Under the pieces are notes generated by a model. It saw only the letters and a list, made by a program, of their open reading frames with translations, did not search any database and was not told where the DNA came from. This document shows, in pieces, positions 637-11,300 of a stretch of 11,300 nucleotides of DNA. Position 1 is the first letter of the stretch; each line of letters begins with the position of its first letter. The stretch comes from a virus. Lineage: Duplodnaviria > Heunggongvirae > Uroviricota > Caudoviricetes. The translations under genes and the position numbers were made by a program. The DNA is taken from the IMG/VR virus record IMGVR_UViG_2778261544_000008; one strand, given 5' to 3'.

Positions 637-1908
637 CTATTCTTTCCAGTCAATCCCATCCAGTAAGCACCCTGCCTCATATTGCCCCACCACCCAGTCA
701 AGGTTACAGGACTCATAGAACGCGAGGCGATTATACTGAGGCTCGTTTTTTACCAGGCCACGAACGGAACCACGCTGCCAGTACAGACACAGATTGGCAA
801 GAGGTGTGATCAATACAGCATTGTCCGGGAAAAATGGAACGGTCACAGCCGGGAGATTCCCCAGAACGGGATTTTTAATGATTTCCTCGTTAAGCAAAAT
901 TTCCTGATTCATCTGCGATGGATCAAGACGGTTTATCAAAGGCCATTGCTTACGGACCAGCGTATTGTGACTGCATACGGCCACAATGCCTTCCTGCCAC
1001 TGTTCATCAATCATGGATTGCCAGGCATCCAGAACGAGCGCATCTATCGTATGGTGTGTACCGCGTGTATTACTTTTCGGTGATGAAACAGAAAGGCCGC
1101 TGATAACCCTTCCCGCCGCTTCATTTCGAAACTTCTGCAACCAACCCACGCCGCAATCGTCACGCCCCGGATATGTTTCAGGGTCAGATTCGGCGGCATA
1201 ATGTGTGCCGTTAAAACCAATCTGAATTAAATCCAGCCATTTCCGGCGTTCAAAAGCGGCCCGCGCACTTCCTTCAAGGCCGTTTGCGGATGCGTGAGCA
1301 TCGGCATTGTCGTAGCTCAACGCAAAATCAAAATTAACCTGCTCGCAGCGGTAGCCCCTTGAAACCAGTGAATGCGCCTGTAGTGGCGAACGGCGCTCGT
1401 GAGGTGGCGATGTGCGTGCCAACGGCCCCGAAGCGTCTACCAGCACAACCCGACCTGATATATCCGTAACAGGCACGGGAGTTATTTCAGCAAGGAAATT
1501 TGCCTGCCATCCACTGGCAAGCGTTGCACTCTGGCGGGGAACGGGTTCAACTTCTGACGAATAGCGCGCAGTGTCACCGGAAAAGTGCAAATCCTTCGGA
1601 TGTTTTCCGGTTATCGACTCGATAGCGCAATTGAAAACCATCTGAGCCTGTTGATTTCGTTGTGATACAACAGAATCAGCAGTGCAATTATAACGCTCAA
1701 TGCCGTCGTTATTACCCCCACCGCTTGCAGTATGCAGGGTGTGAAGCTCAAGCTCACGCTCCAGTTTTTGATATTCATTGTCCAGCGCGCGACGCGTCTC
1801 ATCGCTTATGCTTGCTGTGTTTGCTTTCAGGCGATTCCGGGACATTAATCCCCTGAGTCGGCTCACTATATCAGCGCCGTGCAAATGTGGAGTATTCAGA
1901 CCGCCCAT
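637..1908 (-). CDS. Major capsid protein, P2 gpN-like; start codon uncertain
   Basis: Several blocks match my recollection of P2 gpN: CEQVNFDF, IGFNG, VGWLQKFRNEAAGRVIS, IDALVLDA, LGNLPAVTVPFFPDNAVLITPLANL, YESCNLDWVVGQYEAGCL. The homologous region begins near the ATG at 1641-1639. The frame is open up to 2085. An ATG at 1908-1906 overlaps the upstream ORF's stop as TAATG. Confidence 0.75.
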   Translation of the reverse strand: MGGLNTPHLHGADIVSRLRGLMSRNRLKANTASISDETRRALDNEYQKLERELELHTLHTASGGGNNDGIERYNCTADSVVSQRNQQAQMVFNCAIESITGKHPKDLHFSGDTARYSSEVEPVPRQSATLASGWQANFLAEITPVPVTDISGRVVLVDASGPLARTSPPHERRSPLQAHSLVSRGYRCEQVNFDFALSYDNADAHASANGLEGSARAAFERRKWLDLIQIGFNGTHYAAESDPETYPGRDDCGVGWLQKFRNEAAGRVISGLSVSSPKSNTRGTHHTIDALVLDAWQSMIDEQWQEGIVAVCSHNTLVRKQWPLINRLDPSQMNQEILLNEEIIKNPVLGNLPAVTVPFFPDNAVLITPLANLCLYWQRGSVRGLVKNEPQYNRLAFYESCNLDWVVGQYEAGCLLDGIDWKE

Positions 1909-2618
1909 TACTGCCACCCCCGGCAGAGTTCTCTGCCCTCCGCAAGGTCGCGCATTTTTTCTGGATTCTGTCGCGCCGCGCTCCATTGTACAGGTGAAGG
2001 GGCGTTCCTGATTGCGCGGCTTACCGAATCCGGGAGTTTCTCCGGGCAATAACGCAGCGGGCTGGAGGTGTCGCTTTCGGTATCGTTAATCCGGCCGCGA
2101 ATCATCCCGACACTTTCAGCAGTATCTGTCGCTTTCAGTGTTTCGCATATTTTCTTTTCTGCGTTATACAGCGGCTGGCCAAGCAGCTCACATAAACCAC
2201 GAATCAATAACAGAGCAGGGGTCAGCTCGTTAATCAGTTCGGGAAGTGCTTTTGCAAATATCTCTGCCCGCAACTTATTATCAATGCTTTCGTAAGCACA
2301 ACCAGCCTCTGCCGCGTTATAACGACACTCCAGTAGCCTGATGCGCGCCTCATCATGCAGCACCCGCAGACGCTCAAGATTTTCTCGCGCCACACCCGCC
2401 TGAATGGATAATTTCGCGGAGGCTTCCGTTTTTACGCCCAGCGCAGACAGGATTGAGTTCTGCCAGTCACGATCGAGAGATTCCAGCTCCCCTTTCGTCT
2501 GTTCGATAGTTGCTTCCAGATTGGTGATTAATGATTCCTGTTCACTGAGTTTTGCCATGGCTGCATCAAACTGTGCTTTACATACCTGATGTTCGGCGCT
2601 TGCCTGAGTTATATCCAT
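1908..2618 (-). CDS. Helical or coiled-coil protein, candidate capsid scaffold (Sid/gpO-like role)
   Basis: 236-aa ORF with a good SD (CAGGAGcaaatATG). The N-terminal two thirds are heptad-like and helical. It lies immediately upstream of, and overlaps, the capsid gene. Its last ~45 codons overlap the capsid-frame ORF and look low-complexity. Confidence 0.5.
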   Translation of the reverse strand: MDITQASAEHQVCKAQFDAAMAKLSEQESLITNLEATIEQTKGELESLDRDWQNSILSALGVKTEASAKLSIQAGVARENLERLRVLHDEARIRLLECRYNAAEAGCAYESIDNKLRAEIFAKALPELINELTPALLLIRGLCELLGQPLYNAEKKICETLKATDTAESVGMIRGRINDTESDTSSPLRYCPEKLPDSVSRAIRNAPSPVQWSAARQNPEKMRDLAEGRELCRGWQ

Positions 2619-4438: not shown

Positions 4439-5440
4439 TTACTCTGCTGGTTCTTTTTGTTCAGTGAATGCTATGTTAGCTATCGGGTTAAACCTCATGG
4501 CATCTGCCAGATAGTCGGGAGAAAAATGCGCATAAGTCATCGTTTGCTGAATAGTGGCATGGCCCAGAATCCGTTGCAGGGTAACGATGTTTCCCCCGTT
4601 CATCATGAAATGCGTGGCGAACGTATGACGCATCACATGAGTCGCCTGCCCTTTTGGCAAATCAGGCTTCACCTCCTGGAGGATCTCGCGAAACCGGAGA
4701 TAATCGACCTCGTACAGCGGCCCAGTTCGGCAGGTTTTAATCAGCGAGAGCACGGCATCAGACACCGGAACCGAACGGGACTTCCCGTTCTTGGTGTTGA
4801 AGAACGTCACGCGATTACCGACGATATGCTCCCCGCGTAATTCCGTCGCCTCACCCCACCGCGCCCCCGTGGAGAGACACAGAATGGCGACACGACGCGC
4901 ATCACCTTCGAGTCGCTCAAGAAGCCGCTCAATCTCATCATCAGAAAGAAAGGCCATCTCTGTATTCTGAATTTTTAGCTTACGTATACTGCGCACGGGG
5001 TTCGGGTTGTGAAAGACCCCTGCTTCAATCAACACCGTGAACATGGTAGACAGAACGCATAAGTCACGATTAATACTGGACGGCATTAATCCGGCCTGTA
5101 ATTTCTCTGACCGATACTCAAGCATAAATTTTCGCGTCATCTGGTTGGCGCGCGGATCTCCCATTTCACGAATCACTTTCTCCAGCCGGATCCTGTAGGT
5201 ATCGCCGTAAGCCTGATTACACCCGTCAAGCATCCACCATGTATCAAGCAACTCTGATAATCGCCGCCGATCAGCAGGTTTAGCTAGCCATGGGTTATTA
5301 TGGAAATTCTGCAAAACATATTGTTCGAACTTCTCTGCACTTCCTTTCCTGGTAAAAATTTTACGTATCCGTTTGCCGTATGTCCCTTGCGGCCTGATAT
5401 CTAGCAACCATCTTCCATCATCCATCTTTCTGATCGACAT
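4439..5440 (-). CDS. int: Tyrosine recombinase, P2-type integrase
   Basis: Strong similarity along the whole length to my recollection of P2 Int (MSIRKMDDGRWLLDIRPQG..., ILCLSTGARWGEA, ATHVMRHTFATHF, LQRILGHATIQQTMTYAHF, giving the catalytic R, H-x-x-R and Y). Start taken at ATG 5440 (SD AAGGAG upstream), not the upstream in-frame ATG at 5476. Confidence 0.9.
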   Translation of the reverse strand: MSIRKMDDGRWLLDIRPQGTYGKRIRKIFTRKGSAEKFEQYVLQNFHNNPWLAKPADRRRLSELLDTWWMLDGCNQAYGDTYRIRLEKVIREMGDPRANQMTRKFMLEYRSEKLQAGLMPSSINRDLCVLSTMFTVLIEAGVFHNPNPVRSIRKLKIQNTEMAFLSDDEIERLLERLEGDARRVAILCLSTGARWGEATELRGEHIVGNRVTFFNTKNGKSRSVPVSDAVLSLIKTCRTGPLYEVDYLRFREILQEVKPDLPKGQATHVMRHTFATHFMMNGGNIVTLQRILGHATIQQTMTYAHFSPDYLADAMRFNPIANIAFTEQKEPAE

Positions 5441-5442
5441 AC

Positions 5443-8112
5443 TTAAGATCTCTCCTTGTAACTGAATATCCGGCATTTCAGCACTTCCGGCTCTCTGGCC
5501 TCGGCTACTCCTTTTCCGGCGTTTGCCTGTCTGGACACCTCACTACGAATGGTTTTGCGGCCTGTCAAAGGTCGGGAACGCCCGGCTCCGAGCAGCTCAA
5601 TCATTTCGCGATCTGTTCTGATCTCCACGCGGTGAATGGCGGCAGCCTGTGCCAGTTGCGGAATGCTGATAGCAATCCCTTCGCGGCATCCCTTGCCGTA
5701 GTGGTTTACGCCGTATTTTGTTATGCCGTCCAGGAAGTCGAACGCCTCCCAGAACTCCGTCACTTCCGGCAAGTCAGCCGCCGCCGCTTTAACCTGCGCT
5801 GTTGCCATTTGTTCCAGTTCCAGACATGTGGCATCAAGCCATTCATCCGGGATATCAATAACGCATTTCAGCGCCCTGACCAGCGCGATAAGTTGTGCGT
5901 GATTTTTGGCGATGCGGGGATGGCGAATATTTTCGCATCCGCAAAGGCGTTCCGTTTCAGCTGGCGACACTTCCAGGAACGTTTGCATAATCGCCCGTTC
6001 CTGACTTACCGCCCGGTGAATAAAACCCGATACCTTCTCGACGGGGTAGAGTTCCAGCCGTCTCGCCGCCAGTCGGGTATCTGGTGAATGGCGTTTTTTA
6101 TCGGTGTATATGCGTATCAGGCGCTCAATAATTGCCGGTGAGGCGTTTACCCGCGCATTCTGTGCAATCACGATAGCGCCCTTAAAATCCGGATCATAGG
6201 TGTTGTTATTGTTGGCCTTAACACCACGAACACCGATACCGCCGCCGTTATAGAGGCTTTTCAGGTTATCGAAATCAAACGCACCTCTTTTTTGCGCATT
6301 GTCTCCCCGGTCTGCTTCAATCAGAACAACAGGCAATCCGGCGACCTGTCCAAAGGTGCGCTTCCAGCCCGCTTCTGATCCTTTGGTTGGATCAACGCCT
6401 TCGTAGTTGTCACGACCGCACAGCCGCCAGCAAAAATCAATCAATGTTGATTTACCCGTTCCGGGTTCCCCAGTGACTTCAAGGAAAGGGAAGGATTCTT
6501 CTTTATCCCGGATTTGTTCACTGAACAGCGACCCCAGCCAGAAAGCCAGGGTAATAATTCCCTTTTCGCCAAAAGCCAGCCAGAGATCTTCTACCCATGA
6601 CGTTGTAAATTCATCCGTTTTTTTGTAGTTAATCTGTAATGTGGGTTTTTCGCTTAATGGTTTTGCGTTTATGCCATCAATTTCAAAATAATCTTCGTCA
6701 TTGATTTCATAAGTTTTACCCTTGTAAACAGCAATATCATTAAACAGCCATGCCCCAATGGCCTTGTTGTATCCGATAAAATCCTGACCAATAACCTCTT
6801 TTATTGCAGGAAGGTCATTTTTTATTAATGCGTCAAGCTGCGTAGTCGTTCCGGTATAAATGCCGCCTTTTGCTACGTGCAACAGACGTTTTTTAAATTC
6901 AGATGCGGATGTTAATTGCCCTGATGTAAAGGTGTTTTTCACCGTAGCACCATCCGGGAATGTAATGCGGAAGTAATACCATGCTTCATCCGTATCATTG
7001 TTTCGAATGTAATAAAGCGGCACTGGGTTACAGTTTGCGATTTCTTTTACAGCGCCGGATTCCTTGAGTGCAATTTTGCGCGCTTCATCTTCGTCAACAT
7101 TTCGCTCATTAATGACACGCTCAACAGCCTTCATATGGCGCTCAATATCCAGCTTGAACCAGAAAACACGGTTATCAAAGGGAAAATGAAATTCCTTTCG
7201 CTCACGAAAGGAAAACATTATTAGTGCCTTATCTCGTGGAGATTTCGCCAGCAATAAATCACCGTAATAACGGTATCTTTTCACATCATGGCCACGCAGC
7301 TTTCCGGCGACGTGTAAATCATTCCAGTCGCGTTTATTGTTGTTTTTCCCTGGTAACGCCGCTGCCGTTCTCCAGCCGTCTTCGGCGCTGCGTTCTGCAT
7401 GTTTTTTCGCGTAACGCTCACCTGCACGCCCGTTATCCAGCGCCCACACGATAACCGGACGGGGATTATCCCCGCACAGCTTCGCCAGCTCTTCCAGCGC
7501 CTTATCAGGGTAGTTCACGGCAGACATGACAGAAACGGCCGCAATGCCATTCTGGTTAAGACTGATGGCATCAAAGATACCCTCACAAATCCAGATTTCT
7601 TTGGCCTTGCTTAAATCTGCTCCTGGATAAGCCCACCACAGCCCCTTGTAGCTGCCGGAAAAATTCGCCTTGCGTCCGAAGCGTTCCGGGCGATCTATGA
7701 TTCGCTCCCACCACACACCGTCAGCCAGCGTAAAACGCACAGTAGCGGCCTGTTCGCCGCTTTCCTTGTCCTGGTATCGCTCCTGGGTAAATGCTCCCCT
7801 CAGTGGCTCCACAGCAATATTGCGTGCTTCCTGAAGATAAGCTGCCGCCGCTGCGTATGGTTCATCTTTCGTACTGATATAGCGATCTGACCATGATGAA
7901 AACACATCCGGGTAAAGTTCTTTAGTCAGCAGGTCTACACCGCATTTATTTTCACGCCCGCAGTGTACGATGTACGGCCTTTCAAGGCTGGTAAACAACT
8001 CTTTCTTTCCACATTGCGGACAAACACCATACCGGAGGTAGTTATTTTCTTCTTTAAAGTTGTAATCACGAATAAGACGGTTAATAATCTCTTTTCTGGT
8101 GTTATGTTTCAT
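5443..8112 (-). CDS. Primase-helicase, P4 alpha-like (zinc ribbon + TOPRIM primase + P-loop helicase)
   Basis: N-terminal zinc-binding CPQCGKK...HCGRENKC, a TOPRIM-like segment EIWICEGIFDAISL...WALDNGRAG, and Walker A VTGEPGTGKST with a downstream VVLIEAD. ATG at 8112 is preferred; an in-frame GTG at 8130 is possible. The stop is 2 nt before the int start. Confidence 0.9.
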   Translation of the reverse strand: MKHNTRKEIINRLIRDYNFKEENNYLRYGVCPQCGKKELFTSLERPYIVHCGRENKCGVDLLTKELYPDVFSSWSDRYISTKDEPYAAAAAYLQEARNIAVEPLRGAFTQERYQDKESGEQAATVRFTLADGVWWERIIDRPERFGRKANFSGSYKGLWWAYPGADLSKAKEIWICEGIFDAISLNQNGIAAVSVMSAVNYPDKALEELAKLCGDNPRPVIVWALDNGRAGERYAKKHAERSAEDGWRTAAALPGKNNNKRDWNDLHVAGKLRGHDVKRYRYYGDLLLAKSPRDKALIMFSFRERKEFHFPFDNRVFWFKLDIERHMKAVERVINERNVDEDEARKIALKESGAVKEIANCNPVPLYYIRNNDTDEAWYYFRITFPDGATVKNTFTSGQLTSASEFKKRLLHVAKGGIYTGTTTQLDALIKNDLPAIKEVIGQDFIGYNKAIGAWLFNDIAVYKGKTYEINDEDYFEIDGINAKPLSEKPTLQINYKKTDEFTTSWVEDLWLAFGEKGIITLAFWLGSLFSEQIRDKEESFPFLEVTGEPGTGKSTLIDFCWRLCGRDNYEGVDPTKGSEAGWKRTFGQVAGLPVVLIEADRGDNAQKRGAFDFDNLKSLYNGGGIGVRGVKANNNNTYDPDFKGAIVIAQNARVNASPAIIERLIRIYTDKKRHSPDTRLAARRLELYPVEKVSGFIHRAVSQERAIMQTFLEVSPAETERLCGCENIRHPRIAKNHAQLIALVRALKCVIDIPDEWLDATCLELEQMATAQVKAAAADLPEVTEFWEAFDFLDGITKYGVNHYGKGCREGIAISIPQLAQAAAIHRVEIRTDREMIELLGAGRSRPLTGRKTIRSEVSRQANAGKGVAEAREPEVLKCRIFSYKERS

Positions 8113-8124
8113 ATATAAATCCCC

Positions 8125-8149
8125 CCCCACTGCACCTTTTGCAGTGGGG
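8125..8149. promoter_or_regulatory. Perfect 9-bp stem-loop just upstream of the primase start; attenuator or terminator-like
   Basis: CCCCACTGC-acctttt-GCAGTGGGG. On the plus strand it is followed by TTTTTATTAATT; on the minus strand it precedes the primase SD. It lies in the 43-nt gap between the 101-aa ORF and the primase gene. Confidence 0.4.
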
Positions 8150-8155
8150 TTTTTA

Positions 8156-8461
8156 TTAATTACTCGTTACTTCTTGTTCCCGGGCAATCCCTGCTGCTTC
8201 AGCCTGACGCCATGAAAAAATGCCGCCAGAAAGATGCATACCTGATTTTATTGATTGTAATTCCCGATAAATAATATTAGACAGAGATGTAATATCTTTA
8301 TTGGTAATTTCTGCACCCGCTCCGCAGCTTCTTTCATCAAACATGATAGACATAATGTTGACGAGATTAATTACATCCGTGAGATCTTCTTTTGCATCCT
8401 CTGTAAAAAAACCAACATACTCTTTATGTAAAAGATTTGCGTAATTCTGATTTTCAGACAT
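8156..8461 (-). CDS. Hypothetical protein, 101 aa, AT-rich
   Basis: ORF with SD GGGGAG and 5-nt spacing. Most of the gene is visibly more AT-rich than the flanking genes. No recognisable motif. Confidence 0.5.
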   Translation of the reverse strand: MSENQNYANLLHKEYVGFFTEDAKEDLTDVINLVNIMSIMFDERSCGAGAEITNKDITSLSNIIYRELQSIKSGMHLSGGIFSWRQAEAAGIAREQEVTSN

Positions 8462-8528
8462 AAAAACTCCCCGACCCGTTAAGGTCGAAATATAAATTTA
8501 ATTCAGTTATAAGTTGGTAATTCGGTAA

Positions 8529-8747
8529 TCAGGCGGAAAGCTGCGTCACCTTCAACGCTTTGAAATGTGTCATTCCCAGCTCTTCCAGCCCTTCGGCTGC
8601 GCGGCGTATGGCTTCGCCCGGCCCCGTTCCGTATACCGTTGCGTGTGCATGTTTGGTTAACCCACGTTTATTAACGGCATAACCCAACACAAAGAAACGT
8701 TTTTCACCACTGCCATTATTTTTACGGGATATTGAACGGCTTTTCAT
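8529..8747 (-). CDS. Hypothetical small protein, 72 aa
   Basis: ORF whose ATG overlaps the upstream ORF's stop (ATGA-type coupling). Basic N-terminus. Part of a compact small-gene block upstream of the primase gene. Confidence 0.45.
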   Translation of the reverse strand: MKSRSISRKNNGSGEKRFFVLGYAVNKRGLTKHAHATVYGTGPGEAIRRAAEGLEELGMTHFKALKVTQLSA

Positions 8748-8932
8748 TTCTTCACCTTTACCACTGATGCTGTGAGTTCTTCTTCTGGCAATTGATATTT
8801 CGGCGCAATTTCTTCCGTATACCTGATAGCGTCCCTTGCCGCTTTTCCTTTTGATTTATATTTACGTATCGTGTGGAAGTTTTCTTCCTCTCCTGTTACC
8901 ACATTACGCAATTTAATATGAATATCGTACAT
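8744..8932 (-). CDS. Hypothetical small protein, 62 aa
   Basis: Start chosen at ATG 8932, preceded by a strong SD GGAGGGG. The upstream in-frame start at 8962 lacks an SD. Stop overlaps the next ORF. Confidence 0.5.
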   Translation of the reverse strand: MYDIHIKLRNVVTGEEENFHTIRKYKSKGKAARDAIRYTEEIAPKYQLPEEELTASVVKVKK

Positions 8933-8934
8933 CG

Positions 8935-9117
8935 TTACCCCTCCATGATTTTTACTGCGCATTTGTGGGTTAATCGCCCCTGTTTGTCATTGCGGGAATA
9001 TGCCATACGACAGGCATCACGCCATGCATCGTCATAAGTCGGATATTCCCAGGAATGAATCATCTGGCGAACGTCGCCGTTCTGGTAGTTAATCAGAGTG
9101 ATAAGGAGCTTAAACAT
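8935..9117 (-). CDS. Hypothetical small protein, 60 aa
   Basis: Start chosen at ATG 9117 with SD GGGAGG. It begins 5-8 nt inside the end of the Icd-like ORF. Confidence 0.45.
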   Translation of the reverse strand: MFKLLITLINYQNGDVRQMIHSWEYPTYDDAWRDACRMAYSRNDKQGRLTHKCAVKIMEG

Positions 9118-9283
9118 GGCACGCCTCCCGGACACGGATACGAGCAACAAAGACCAGACGGGATGCCGGAAGCATGGCGCGCGCTTCGCGCTCACTGGCA
9201 GCGGTAACGGTATGAAGGCGAATATTTTTACCGTGGCACTGCATAAAGCGCCAGATAAAATCAGGGCGTGTTGATATAGCCAT
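9110..9283 (-). CDS. Icd-like small protein (P4-type immunity-region ORF)
   Basis: 57-aa ORF starting at ATG 9283 with SD GAGGAG (MAISTRPDFIWRFMQCHGKNIRLHTVTAASEREARAMLP...). It resembles small proteins annotated as Icd-like in P4-type elements, by recollection only. The longer 175-aa frame upstream has no SD. Confidence 0.4.
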   Translation of the reverse strand: MAISTRPDFIWRFMQCHGKNIRLHTVTAASEREARAMLPASRLVFVARIRVREACHV

Positions 9284-9535
9284 TTTGGCGGCTCCTCTAA
9301 CTGATTTACGGAGTCTCGCCAGCACGCTGCTAAACATGGTGGCGGGACGTAACAGGGTTAGCAGACTGGCGTTAGAGAAACCAGCGAGCGCAAAGGCTCC
9401 CCCATTACGCCCCGCCATAATACGGGGTAGGGTGGAATTACGGGCACAAAAAAACCGCATTACGGAAATATAGCGGCTACCCGCTCTAACAATCAGGCTG
9501 CTAAACCCGGCACCTGTTTTATGAGGTGCGGGCAA

Positions 9536-9565
9536 ACGATACGCCATGACAAAAAAGCGAGTCAA
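9536..9565 (-). promoter_or_regulatory. Candidate sigma70 promoter for the minus-strand early operon
   Basis: On the minus strand: TTGACT (9565-9560), 18-nt spacer, TATCGT (9541-9536). It would start a long leader (~240 nt) before the first SD-equipped ORF at 9283. Confidence 0.3.
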
Positions 9566-9699
9566 GAAAAATTGCAAATTATTTTGGCGATATTGCGCTG
9601 ACTTATTGATTTTTAAGAGTAAAAAAGTCATTATCATTTCTGCCTATTGTTTCTTATTGTTGGTTTCAGGTGCATTAAATGCACATCCTTGACTGGTTG

Positions 9700-9731
9700 G
9701 CTCGCTAGTTTTAGCGAGCTTCTTTTTTTTT
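9700..9731 (+). terminator. Rho-independent terminator, plus-strand orientation
   Basis: Perfect 8-bp stem GCTCGCTA / TAGCGAGC with loop GTTT, followed by TTCTTTTTTTTT on the plus strand. No annotated plus-strand gene feeds into it. Confidence 0.55.
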
Positions 9732-9831
9732 GCTCTGCTGTCAGTACTTGGCCTCCTTTCCCCACATGTAGCAATACGTTCAGATCAGTAAGTTTTGCCA
9801 CCCAGTGATGGACGCAATAAACCACCAACGC

Positions 9832-10152
9832 TTATTCAACTCTGGCGCTACCGGATTCCCTCTCCCTTTTCTTTTTGGCGTTTTCGTATGGGTTATTCAC
9901 TTTGGCAATAACTGGCGGATTACGCAGCCACCACAAAACATCACTTAACAGCCAGGTACATGAGCAACGCCCCAAAGAGTGACGGGGAGGAAAAGCACCG
10001 ATCTTCTCCAGTTCCCAGCGCCGGGAGCGTGAAAGCGTGGTCATCTTTTTACACTTCTCTTCCCTGATGCGTTCTTCGCAGTCAAAACCATACTCGGCGA
10101 GTATGGTGCGGCGCTGTTCTGGAGTTGGTGGAATGAATGCGGATTGAGTCAT
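9832..10152 (-). CDS. alpA: AlpA/Vis-family DNA-binding regulator (excisionase-like HTH)
   Basis: 106-aa ORF with SD GGGGGA. The central segment LSRSRRWELEKIGAFPPRHSLGRCSCTWLLSDVLWWL fits the AlpA/Vis pattern (LSRST-YR...G-FP-...LG-R-V-W...V--W). Confidence 0.6.
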   Translation of the reverse strand: MTQSAFIPPTPEQRRTILAEYGFDCEERIREEKCKKMTTLSRSRRWELEKIGAFPPRHSLGRCSCTWLLSDVLWWLRNPPVIAKVNNPYENAKKKRERESGSARVE

Positions 10153-10247
10153 ATTTCCCCCTATGTTTCTGAACTTTCGGGGGAGATTTTTGTTTTACGG
10201 AGTTTTGAAAGCAAGTATTAAAGGTCTTATTAAGATGCTTGCTGGTC

Positions 10248-11300
10248 TTACTGAGATGATGCCTTAATCCATCTTGATATAGTACTTTTATCAAAGCGCA
10301 TATTGAGTCCTGCCTCTCTTGCTTCCGCGGTCAATATATCAGCAAGTTTTACCGGATTGTTTTCGAGTTCTTTATAATGAATAACAAGCATCGCACGAAA
10401 AAAATCCTTCATTGTTTTAGATAATCGTTCTATATTGTTTTTATTGGTGCATATATCTTTCTCCCCATCCTCAGAACTTAATATATTGTTACCCGCACGC
10501 AAATATAAAGTATCTGCCAATGGACTAACATAATCTTTTCTTAACTCGCTATTGGAGTTTGTAGCATTTTGTATTTTTAAAAAATCATTCTTTAAGATAT
10601 ATAAATCACCAATATCAAAAGAAACATCCTCAGTAACAATTACTCCTATATGTATATCAACGTCAGAAGCAATTATAATATTGCTATTAATTATTCGGTT
10701 GGCTTTAAACTTCTTATTAAAATCATAGTTGGCAAAAAAACTTCCCCCCAAAGCGAAAATGCCGCCTATTTCAACAAAATACTTATGGTATTTTTCTTGA
10801 ATACCTTTAAATACTGGTGGTACAACTGCCACACCTCTTTCATCCGTTGCTATTCGATATACACTATATATGTGATAATTTTCCCCATAATATAACCCCC
10901 TGTTATAATAATTTAACAAAGCAAATGCAGTATCAATTGCTATGTCACCAAATTTGGGCGCTACATATGAATGGCTTAGAGATTCACACATTGAATCAAA
11001 TATAATTCTCGACTTGTTTTTTATATAATTAAAACCATGGTGTTCTGCCGCCCTTTCTGAAATGGCATCAAGGTCAGATAACCGTGATTTACATGGTTCT
11101 GAATCCATAAACTTACGCAGACAATCGAAATTAACCACATCTTTTTCATCTGGGATATTTAATACTCCATATGCAGATTCAATTTTTATACAAATACGAA
11201 TGCAGCCTGTCACAGCCCAATGAATAAGATCATCAATATCGCAGTCTAATAACTTTGCCGCGCGCTCAATAGGATAGTAATCTCTTAGTGGTAACGTCAT
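10248..11300 (-). CDS. Hypothetical protein, 350 aa, strongly AT-rich cargo gene with HTH-like termini
   Basis: Uninterrupted 1053-nt ORF whose ATG is the last three bases of the window. Composition is far more AT-rich than the neighbouring alpA and primase genes. The N-terminus (IERAAKLLDCDIDDLIHWAVTG) and C-terminus (LADILTAEAREAGLNMRFDKSTISRWIK) look HTH-like. The central domain is unrecognised. Confidence 0.65.
   Translation of the reverse strand: MTLPLRDYYPIERAAKLLDCDIDDLIHWAVTGCIRICIKIESAYGVLNIPDEKDVVNFDCLRKFMDSEPCKSRLSDLDAISERAAEHHGFNYIKNKSRIIFDSMCESLSHSYVAPKFGDIAIDTAFALLNYYNRGLYYGENYHIYSVYRIATDERGVAVVPPVFKGIQEKYHKYFVEIGGIFALGGSFFANYDFNKKFKANRIINSNIIIASDVDIHIGVIVTEDVSFDIGDLYILKNDFLKIQNATNSNSELRKDYVSPLADTLYLRAGNNILSSEDGEKDICTNKNNIERLSKTMKDFFRAMLVIHYKELENNPVKLADILTAEAREAGLNMRFDKSTISRWIKASSQ

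Follow-up and report, generated by a model that had tools for sequence, protein, structure and literature searches.

A C4/CI-type antisense-RNA immunity module very probably precedes the replication operon of an integrated E. coli phage satellite

The minus-strand region 9565..9283 of the window (the whole 11,300-nucleotide stretch of DNA that was analysed) is very probably a C4/CI antisense-RNA immunity, or self-repression, module belonging to an integrated phage satellite, and it most likely silences the replication genes of this E. coli element. The system is a known one, C4 in P1 and P7 and CI in P4, whose principle has been familiar from these phages for about 30 years, and the module described here is an ordinary, previously unannotated member of it. 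The original prediction, which placed RNA immunity of the P4 style in the leader of an operon with an Icd-like ORF and a primase gene, is supported by matches to the Rfam C4 and isrK models, both above their curated cut-offs, and by co-variation at three sites. It was correct in kind and wrong in detail, namely in the identity of the repeats, the nearest relative and the translation of the upstream part. The two Rfam matches follow each other in the order isrK then C4, the same order as in P4 itself when searched with the same models, and the region aligns feature by feature to the annotated promoter, a1, b1, c4, a2, b2 and icd of P1. The features on which the argument depends are the following.

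9832..10152, minus strand: homologue of the AlpA-family regulators/excisionases, counterpart of P4 orf88/vis (Pfam PF05930, 30.5 bits)
9110..9637, minus strand: 175-aa open frame, P4 eta-like, containing the promoter, the leader, C4 and the Icd-like ORF (from the ORF list)
9536..9565, minus strand: predicted sigma-70 promoter of the constitutive type (consensus scan and alignment with P1c4), with -35 TTGACT at 9565..9560, an 18-nt spacer and -10 TATCGT at 9541..9536
9448..9529, minus strand: isrK / P4 seqA-type leader (Rfam RF01394, 52.2 bits, cut-off 50)
9498..9504, minus strand: a1 target UUAGCAG, upstream copy, complementary to a', at a position homologous to the annotated a1 of P1
9484..9490, minus strand: b1 target GUUAGAG, upstream copy, complementary to b', homologous to the annotated b1 of P1
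9448..9478, minus strand: intrinsic-terminator-like hairpin AGCCGC / 14-nt loop / GCGGUU overlapping U7 (3' hairpin of Rfam isrK)
9335..9422, minus strand: gene for a C4/CI-type antisense RNA (Rfam RF01695, 72.9 bits, cut-off 45, E 5e-13)
9371..9377, minus strand: recognition segment b', CUCUAAC, looped out in C4 hairpin 2 and fully complementary to b1 and b2
9358..9364, minus strand: a' recognition segment CUGCUAA in a single-stranded joint of C4, exact complement of a1 and a2
9327..9333, minus strand: a2 target UUAGCAG, downstream copy, P4 seqC-like, homologous to the annotated a2 of P1
9301..9295, minus strand: b2 target GUUAGAG, homologous to the annotated b2 of P1, overlapping the Shine-Dalgarno (SD) sequence GAGGAG (9297..9292) of the Icd-like ORF
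9110..9283, minus strand: 57-aa Icd-like ORF, first in the operon to carry an SD (56 bits with NCBIfam NF033153 phage_ICD_like)
9117..8935, 8932..8744, 8747..8529 and 8461..8156, minus strand: four small ORFs (from the ORF list)
8130..5443, minus strand: Toprim primase/helicase-type gene (Pfam Toprim_2/Toprim_3; RefSeq annotation of the near-identical locus L001)

A covariance-model search for P4 CI RNA had been proposed as a check, and it was run: RF01695, a family that also matches P4 CI, was found at 72.9 bits over its full length (model positions 1-87). Nucleotide identity to the P1/P7 c4 region is about 80% over 9510..9325. The C4 RNA folds with -45 kcal/mol (z = -5.56), and its minimum-energy fold is that of the family, in which two hairpins are enclosed by a long basal stem. 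In a comparison of 20 homologues, pairing holds in 98.2% of cells and compensatory double changes are seen in 15 of the 28 pairs, which none of 500 shuffles matched; when the partners were slid by 1-3 columns as a control, just 37-53% remained paired. From homology to the 77-nt C4 of P1, the mature RNA is predicted to be about 79 nt long (9416..9338, GGCGGGG...GCCACC). The sequence ACCA (9340..9337) comes after the stem, a feature of RNase P substrates, and both ends match P1 C4 by homology; processing of C4/CI, by RNase P at the 5' end and by trimming at the 3' end, has been published for P1/P7 and P4 (PMC5499578). The original prediction had also pointed to a CCCCG/CGGGG hairpin. Both sequences are indeed present (9427..9423 and 9414..9410), but the hairpin could not be confirmed as meaningful: its supposed 3' arm, CGGGG, belongs to the basal stem of C4 as the 5' strand and, in the minimum-energy fold, pairs with the C4 3' strand instead.

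The recognition segments of this RNA have exact 7-nt complements both upstream and downstream of C4. The significant repeat GTTTAGCAGC, present in two copies, corresponds to the a element, while GTTAGAG occurs as two copies plus one complement within 200 nt, its 4 matches in the window being reached in 0 of 200 shuffles. For b2, the P1 record carries the note 'repression of icd ant translation'. Complements of a module's own a' and b' are present upstream and downstream in all of the 90 unique related modules, and this presence falls to 0-1.5% when alleles are swapped between modules as a control. All three copies of a, and likewise of b, vary together in 90/90 modules. Among close relatives, 9 of the 12 leader differences fall within the 42 of 250 columns that are occupied by the a/b sites (P = 7e-6); concerted changes of all three separated patches are found on otherwise identical backgrounds, twice independently in the case of the dinucleotide swap in the a element. 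The sample contains at least 18 b alleles and at least 3 a alleles. The a allele of this element is identical to that of P7, and its b allele, GUUAGAG, was seen in no other element of the sample (P1 has GUUAGUG and P7 GAUUGUG); the combination of the two is previously unsampled. The a and b sequences are the expected determinants of immunity specificity.

The minus-strand promoter TTGACT/18 nt/TATCGT is present as originally claimed, and in the alignment it coincides with P1c4/P51b, a mapped sigma-70 promoter annotated in P1, whose -10 TATAGT lies opposite TATCGT. Judged by consensus only, it does not exceed chance, since 2 matches were found where 1.3 were expected in a scan of 900 nt; as judged from the sequence, it is the likely counterpart of P1c4/P51b and of PLE in P4. 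The leader, for which a length of about 240 nt had been given, measures 246 nt from the predicted start (~9529) to the ATG at 9283. The isrK match starts at 9529, 7 nt downstream of the -10, and spans the full model (positions 1-77), its 52.2 bits being marginal against the cut-off of 50; the leader of P4 itself scores 60.8 bits with RF01394. The c4-a1b1 motif RF03163 is sub-threshold here (33.8 bits vs 46.7), with the a1/b1 sites themselves present, whereas P1 (51.0 bits) and P7 (55.5 bits) pass the threshold.

This leader opens with a hairpin (9529..9510); a second one displays a1 and is followed by b1. The terminator hairpin comes last, together with U7, which is the minus-strand T7 run of the original prediction, located at 9454..9448. 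Terminator scans with a loop limit of 8 nt overlook this terminator, whose loop has 14 nt. Alternatively, its 5' arm can pair with the terminal AGCGG of b1 (9486..9472), which makes a candidate anti-terminator. According to ViennaRNA, the free leader favours the AGCGG/CCGCU hairpin and the terminator hairpin forms once a1 and b1 are blocked, the two folds being only about 2 kcal/mol apart. This terminator/anti-terminator arrangement is conserved in P1/P7 and in the satellites, with GCGG-N4-CCGC ... GCGG invariant in the enterobacterial relatives; because the nucleotides are invariant, co-variation cannot support the alternative pairing. Leaders from Acinetobacter are built differently from the enterobacterial ones.

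The Icd-like protein shares 48% identity with Icd of P1 (E 2e-14). P4 Kil matches the same phage_ICD_like model with 76 bits, and P4 Eta matches it too; the ORF thus corresponds to icd of P1 and kil of P4. Codon periodicity is seen in it. Its stop overlaps the ATG of the next ORF (ATGTTTAA, 9117..9110). The ORFs that follow it (9117..8156) gave no Pfam, NCBIfam or PHROG match and none of them is Ant-like, and the primase is only a distant relative of P4 alpha. BLASTP gave no alignment of the Icd-like protein with P4 Kil, nor of the long ORFs with each other. We treat these genes as one operon because of their tight spacing and overlaps, and those at 5443..9117 on the minus strand are presumably under the control of the module. 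The functions controlled are deduced from gene order, because there is no Ant homologue, the primase is distant from alpha and the Icd-like and Kil proteins do not align by BLASTP.

The closest layout is that of immI of P1/P7, with which the module shares the position of the promoter, the order a1, b1, C4 (b', a'), a2, b2, icd and the location of b2 on the icd SD. In P1/P7, icd is followed by, and translationally coupled to, the ant1/ant2 antirepressor, whereas four small ORFs and the primase gene are found here, and on reading, the sequence upstream of the promoter showed no obvious C1 operator. Here the icd frame continues without a stop across the RNA region, while in P1/P7 it is closed 33 nt upstream of icd. 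The likeness to P4 (PLE - seqA - CI RNA - seqC - kil/eta - ... - alpha) extends beyond the isrK and C4 matches: GUGAGAA and UUCACAGG flank CI in a similar a/b layout with b2 on the kil SD, Kil is Icd-like, the promoter lies within a long ORF in which a short one with an SD is nested, and the module stands at the head of a replication (primase) operon, with an AlpA/Vis homologue upstream of it. A blastn search of phages in 'distant' mode found P1/P7-type records and no nucleotide similarity to P4; since both blastn and BLASTP were negative, the relationship to P4 is visible solely via the Rfam and NCBIfam models.

Several traits set the element apart from P4. Leader and C4 lie 25 nt apart, as compared with 107 nt in P4. 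There is no direct coupling of the long ORF to alpA, from which a 195-nt gap separates it; this gap holds a 64-aa TTG ORF (9828..9634) that has no family match and is not conserved in close relatives. A 48-aa plus-strand ORF (9546-9692) has no family match either. There is no PLL-like Delta-dependent promoter in the window: the P4 PLL / Ogr-Delta dyad TGT-N12-ACA is absent near alpA and the long ORF, its one match in the window lying inside a 350-aa ORF, with 2.5 expected by chance, and no convincing sigma-70 site is seen upstream of the long ORF. Instead of sid or psu, neither of which was found, the element carries a P2-family capsid homologue (Pfam). It adjoins hpt, with one integrase upstream of the window and a second recombinase gene after the primase. 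The hpt neighbour and the zone order AlpA, immunity-RNA, replication, late are shared with the Gram-negative PICIs, as described in PMC10111431. That paper already reports Rfam C4 and isrK profile matches in the 'Bro zone' of several PICI satellites, including hpt-integrated ones, and in its available part neither the a/b allele series nor this element is described. The long ORF of the present element differs in lacking any domain that could be recognised at the N terminus, be it Bro-N, Rha or another.

The mechanism that we propose follows the accounts of such RNA immunity summarised in PMC10111431 and PMC4825925. The constitutive promoter at 9565..9536 would transcribe the 246-nt leader, and a C4/CI-type RNA of about 79 nt (~9416..9338) would be cut from the same transcript, presumably by RNase P as in P1/P7 and P4. 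Its exposed a' (CUGCUAA) and b' (CUCUAAC) could then pair with a1/b1 on the nascent transcript and with a2/b2 upstream of the Icd-like ORF. Pairing at b2 would cover the SD and leave the Icd-like (kil-like) ORF untranslated, and the untranslated transcript would be terminated ahead of the small ORFs and the primase gene. A translation block followed by termination is what has been shown for P1 icd-ant and P4 kil/alpha. Pairing with a1/b1 may in addition open the small hairpin and free the 5' arm of the terminator, so that transcription would tend to end at U7. This stop at U7 is the weakest step of the proposal, suggested by the folding calculations. P4-type immunity includes a premature, CI-dependent termination (timm) of transcripts near the promoter, for which the U7 terminator would be the candidate here. 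An efficient terminator at U7 would also block C4 synthesis, and it must therefore be leaky. Finally, ribosomes on transcripts that come from an upstream promoter may read through the long ORF and thereby override the RNA-mediated block.

The isrK match lends itself to another reading, which we regard as possible though rather unlikely: the short leader RNA (~9529..9448) could be a trans-acting sRNA of the IsrK type that activates the Icd-like ORF and the operon, its a1/b1 sites binding the long transcript or titrating C4. The model for this is the Salmonella Gifsy-1 isrK - orf45 - anrP locus, whose leader RNA, like the present one, has two hairpins at the 5' end and an intrinsic terminator that is leaky. 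Downstream of it lie a processed RNA (STnc1160, with the predicted C4 RNA in its place here) and a short ORF whose translation is coupled to that of the gene after it (PMC4825925). In Gifsy-1, the short IsrK produced by termination at the equivalent hairpin activates orf45-anrP translation in trans, and IsrK is called a structural homologue of the P4 SeqA RNA (PMC4825925); moreover, a1/b1 are perfect decoys for a'/b'. Against this, the short RNA of Gifsy-1 is reported to activate an antirepressor cascade in a lambdoid prophage, whereas satellite replication genes are concerned here and the isrK score is marginal. In P4 genetics, as presented in PMC10111431 and PMC4825925, seqA is a site needed for termination and not an activator. 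Positive control of the IsrK kind is in any case compatible with C4-mediated immunity rather than exclusive of it.

That the 175-aa ORF is itself the functional product, an Ash-, Eta- or 'cI'-like or a long Icd-like protein, with the RNA motifs incidental, is very unlikely. Its frame runs open through the 354 nt that precede the Icd-like ATG, it shows 0 stops in 12/12 satellite-type relatives (with 6.5 and 4.2 in the other frames), and the indels of these relatives keep it. In six relatives the stop codon of an ORF further upstream is overlapped by the first ATG, the PHROG families phrog_6928 and phrog_29966 cover the full length, and at a 99.7%-identical locus in RefSeq (L001), PGAP called a CDS of 173 aa, 'host cell division inhibitor Icd-like protein'. 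On the other hand, third-position values upstream of 9283 are 0.205/0.222/0.219, without any excess, as compared with 0.279/0.209/0.367 in the Icd-like ORF, and in P1-type modules the same frame through the homologous RNA region contains 2.8 stops on average. The Icd-like domain match is limited to aa 127-169; the N-terminal 118 aa have no Pfam or NCBIfam match, 'Ash'-type included, and their sole match is a weak one to PHROG 995 (E 0.004). The promoter lies inside the ORF, the variation tracks RNA pairing rather than codons, and in P4 it is an RNA that has been shown to be the immunity factor (cited in PMC5499578 and PMC10111431). The original prediction had argued that the upstream part lacks an SD and that its ATG falls within the promoter spacer. 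Indeed, no upstream in-frame start has an SD and an in-frame ATG (9547) lies in the spacer, but the ORF starts upstream of the promoter, at 9637/9631, and homology with the relatives breaks at about 9638. The conclusion drawn from this, that the upstream part is not translated, agrees with the absence of codon periodicity in the leader; the frame is nonetheless open in all satellite-type relatives.

We favour the RNA module, in which the long ORF is probably, by analogy, a device like P4 eta, which is translated only from an upstream late promoter (PMC10111431). In P4-type systems this translation, coupled to the alpA/vis homologue, overrides immunity. In the present lineage the long ORF is not convincingly coupled to an upstream gene, and the upstream ORF is not conserved. 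The RefSeq CDS at L001 is accordingly over-long and calls for correction: it consists mostly of promoter, leader RNA and C4 RNA, and is gene-like only in its last 57 codons.

It is very unlikely that the module is a decaying relic without any remaining regulatory role. Defective elements are common among integrated satellites and RefSeq annotates no RNA at the module, but the six recognition and target sites are perfectly matched here and in every relative despite differing alleles, near-identical relatives show concerted three-site changes, which requires ongoing selection, and both the C4 stem and the operon ORFs are intact. As to the ATTACGG/CCGTAAT repeats of the original prediction, it is almost certain that they are not functional elements, whether antisense targets or protein-binding sites: the leader has two exact copies 22 nt apart (9437-9443 and 9459-9465, plus strand) and a third with 1 mismatch (9404-9410), but the 3 exact matches of the whole window (1.58 expected) are reached by 43 of 200 shuffles, the copies sit in the terminator loop, a spacer and the C4 stem and are complementary to no unpaired part of C4, and relatives, which do not keep them as a set, carry CCGATAT, CCGTAAA or GCGTAAC/GCGTGAT in their place. 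As a repeat unit, ATTACGG is effectively refuted, the functional repeats being a (UUAGCAG) and b (GUUAGAG).

The switch identified here is the one that most likely holds the replication operon of an hpt-adjacent satellite silent. Immunity is predicted toward elements that share both the a and the b alleles, and the allele series offers ready-made natural compensatory mutants for studies of RNA-RNA specificity and of satellite-satellite exclusion. More tentatively, and with rather less than even confidence in the two taken together, the a and b sites may constitute a two-site immunity 'barcode' under diversifying selection, in which concerted three-patch changes would create new specificities, while the ORF is kept open only for the passage of ribosomes; the same 250 nt would then be maintained stop-free without amino-acid constraint, so that ribosomes cancel the RNA-mediated termination. 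If both are true, satellites would compete through RNA immunity types, and the long 'Icd-like/Ash-like' CDSs of the databases would be ribosome conduits and not proteins.

Rfam was scanned over the whole window at curated thresholds, and exactly two matches were obtained, both on the minus strand and both inside the region of interest: the C4 antisense RNA of P1 and P7, and isrK, a leader family of the P4 seqA type. The a1/b1 target motif (RF03163) matched under threshold. In phage P4, the CI RNA scores as C4 and the seqA leader as isrK, in the same order as in the window, so that the original prediction of a P4-style RNA immunity region is supported in kind. No nucleotide similarity to P4 was detected by blastn; over 9510..9325, identity with the c4 regions of phages P1 and P7 is about 80%. 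The richly annotated P1 record, aligned to the window, was the basis for the following map, in which a and b are short target sites and a' and b' their complements within C4.

Features of the C4 module, with P1 counterparts
9541..9536, minus: promoter -10, TATCGT (P1, TATAGT, P1c4/P51b)
9529..9448, minus: isrK (RF01394), 52.2 bits against a cut-off of 50
9504..9498, minus: a1, TTAGCAG (P1, TTGACAG)
9490..9484, minus: b1, GTTAGAG (P1, GTTAGTGC)
9422..9335, minus: C4 antisense RNA (RF01695), 72.9 bits against a cut-off of 45
9416..9338, minus: C4 RNA, predicted, about 79 nt (P1, 77 nt)
9377..9371, minus: b', CTCTAAC, C4 loop, exact complement of the b sites
9364..9358, minus: a', CTGCTAA, single-stranded joint of C4, exact complement of the a sites
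9333..9327, minus: a2, TTAGCAG (P1, TTGACAG)
9301..9295, minus: b2, GTTAGAG (P1, GTTAGTGA), on the Shine-Dalgarno
9283..9110, minus: 57-aa Icd-like ORF (P1 icd, 73 aa)

Most signals claimed for the leader are present as described: the putative minus-strand promoter (TTGACT, 9565..9560; 18 nt; TATCGT), an in-frame ATG at 9547 within its spacer, CCCCG at 9427..9423 with CGGGG at 9414..9410, and the T7 run at 9454..9448 (minus strand). The first in-frame start with a Shine-Dalgarno is ATG 9283 (GAGGAG, 9297..9292), earlier in-frame starts having none. The ATTACGG repeats, on the other hand, did not hold up. The window carries three exact copies against 1.58 expected, a number equalled in 43 of 200 shuffles, and the two exact and one imperfect copies of the leader region lie in three unrelated contexts and are not retained in relatives.

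The predicted C4 fold is that of the family (-45 kcal/mol, z = -5.56). In an alignment of 20 diverse homologues (the window, P1, P7, P4, Budvicia, Aeromonas, Acinetobacter and viral contigs), 98.2% of cells are paired and 15 of 28 pairs show changes on both sides, values reached by none of 500 shuffles; pairing falls to 37-53% when the partners are slid by 1-3 columns.

Relative to P1, the a and b elements are both altered at all three places together. The window shares its a allele with P7, while its b allele is unlike those of P1 and P7. When genome and viral collections were scanned by pattern, 90 unique modules were recovered, with no fewer than 16 b' and 3 a' alleles among them (additional E. 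coli loci supply two more b' alleles). Each of the 90 has sequences complementary to its own a' and b' on either side of C4, in the leader as well as downstream; swapping alleles between modules left a match in only 0-1.5%. The sets a1/a'/a2 and b1/b'/b2 are matched in every satellite-type relative. Differences between the window and its close relatives lie mostly at pairing sites: of the 12 leader differences counted for L096 and L139, 9 are in site columns, which make up 42 of 250 (P = 7e-6). In the pairs of loci L046/L139 and L137/L138, the two members are alike over about 300 nt except that the a dinucleotide is swapped at each of the three sites (-218/-217, -77/-76 and -47/-46 from the Icd-like ATG; a1, a' and a2). 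Six substitutions made in concert, with no other change around them and seen twice independently, require selection on pairing. The three separate patches might have changed together by gene conversion between co-resident modules.

Within the 175-aa ORF, the match to the Icd-like HMM (NF033153) is confined to residues 127-169, that is, to the nested 57-aa ORF, which is 48% identical to P1 Icd; P4 Kil also scores as Icd-like (76 bits). The long ORF does not begin in the promoter spacer, as had been proposed, but upstream of the promoter, at 9637/9631. Whether its upstream part goes untranslated received a mixed answer. Mean pairwise differences by codon position in 12 satellite-type sequences are 0.279/0.209/0.367 in the Icd-like ORF, as expected of a coding sequence, and 0.205/0.222/0.219 in the leader, which therefore is not evolving as protein. 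Against this, the Icd frame is stop-free from transcription start to ATG in 12/12 of these sequences (6.5 and 4.2 stops in the remaining two frames; 2.8 in the Icd frame of P1-type modules), and leader indels keep it. A stop-free, non-coding frame agrees with the published P4 eta/kil arrangement: in the summary of Forti et al. 1999 given in PMC10111431, the promoter PLE sits within eta; kil, the short form nested in eta, is the gene translated first on transcripts from PLE; and translation of full-length eta, which prevents termination, occurs only on transcripts from the late promoter upstream. In six relatives, the start codon (ATG) of the long ORF and the stop of an ORF upstream of it overlap. 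Since this partner is not conserved in the window's own lineage and a search for a late promoter near alpA or the long ORF was negative, an eta-like role is no more than plausible.

Several observations concern the annotation and surroundings of this frame. At the RefSeq locus L001, no ncRNA is annotated, and 9631..9110 (10070-10591 there) is a single PGAP CDS, a 173-aa "host cell division inhibitor Icd-like protein" spanning promoter, leader RNA and C4 RNA. In L139 (95.5% identical), the CDS begins at the Icd-like ATG and continues into the next ORF as a fusion of 119 aa. Homology between the window lineage and its close relative L046 breaks at about 9638 (about -357 from the Icd-like ATG), so that the mosaic boundary coincides with the ATG (9637) of the 175-aa ORF. 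In E. coli PICIs (L134-L138, 3744-4401), another Icd-like CDS directly precedes the C4-containing long ORF with an 8-nt overlap (ATGnnTAA); upstream, some of these loci also carry a third Icd-like sequence, a pseudogene, together with a divergently oriented YlcI/YnfO gene. A 48-aa ORF of the opposite strand (within 9546-9730, +), with a Lys-rich N-terminus, a hydrophobic C-terminus and no family match, overlaps the C4 promoter; 3' to it, at 9699-9720 (+), is a strong hairpin that resembles a terminator and has a T8 run; read on the minus strand, this hairpin lacks a U tail.

Family membership, the C4 structure, perfect co-varying complementarity and the overlap of b2 with the Shine-Dalgarno are established by this analysis. 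The Icd-like stop overlaps the next start (ATGTTTAA, 9117..9110), in a compact ORF run reaching the Toprim primase. C4 and CI are processed by RNase P (PMC5499578); as outlined in PMC10111431 and PMC4825925, control is by a translational block followed by downstream termination in P1, and by premature termination in P4. In the free leader, AGCGG at the b1 end would pair with CCGCU, the 5' arm of a terminator, and blocking of a1 and b1 would let the terminator hairpin and U7 form. The case for this switch is weak, because the two folds differ little in energy and the bases involved do not vary. An IsrK-type reading, in which a short leader RNA acts in trans (PMC4825925), would complement the antisense explanation.

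L033 (10284-10951, -) and L092 (2801-3467, +) each have a tandem pair of complete modules with a spacing of about 480 nt, in the order isrK + C4, then c4-a1b1 + C4; in L092 an open frame (615 nt) spans both. C4 modules that share hairpin 2 and have matched a/b sites are found well beyond Enterobacteriaceae: in Acinetobacter (L006, L007, L010, L012), whose leaders lack the GCGG...CCGC/U-run terminator arrangement, Aeromonas (L011), Budvicia (L009) and a MAG labelled Bacillota (L008). As the L008 C4 segment agrees with the P1/P7-type consensus except in the b' loop, this contig may be contamination.

In E. coli 08_3323, a segment between gcd and hpt matches the window at 99.7% identity, and the genes there run: integrase, a 350-aa ORF of no assigned function, AlpA, C4 module, four small ORFs, primase, second tyrosine recombinase, Ogr/Delta, P2-family capsid homologue and a PemK/MazF toxin gene adjoining hpt. 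PICIs integrated at hpt are already reported, and the Rfam C4 and isrK profiles match several Gram-negative PICIs (PMC10111431). The first integrase, at the gcd-proximal end, lies outside the window. The 350-aa ORF (10248..11300, -), between integrase and alpA, matched nothing in Pfam, NCBIfam or PHROG. The second recombinase (4439..5476, -; Int_N + Phage_integrase) overlaps the primase gene end. This small satellite carries a P2-family major capsid homologue (637..2049, -; PF05125 over aa 179-466 of a 470-aa ORF with an N-terminal extension; 423 aa in RefSeq); no sid or psu homologue was recognised in it. The PemK/MazF-type ORF (249-593, +), at the hpt-proximal end, follows an 82-aa ORF (1-249, +; RefSeq hypothetical protein, no Pfam match), possibly an antitoxin.

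Textbook knowledge is exceeded, and only somewhat, in two respects: the series of alleles, and the frame that is non-coding yet free of stops. With the original observation partly confirmed and its interpretation supported in kind, the module is a c4-icd cassette of P1/P7-like type that is deployed as in P4, at the head of a satellite's putative replication operon, and bears its own specificity alleles.
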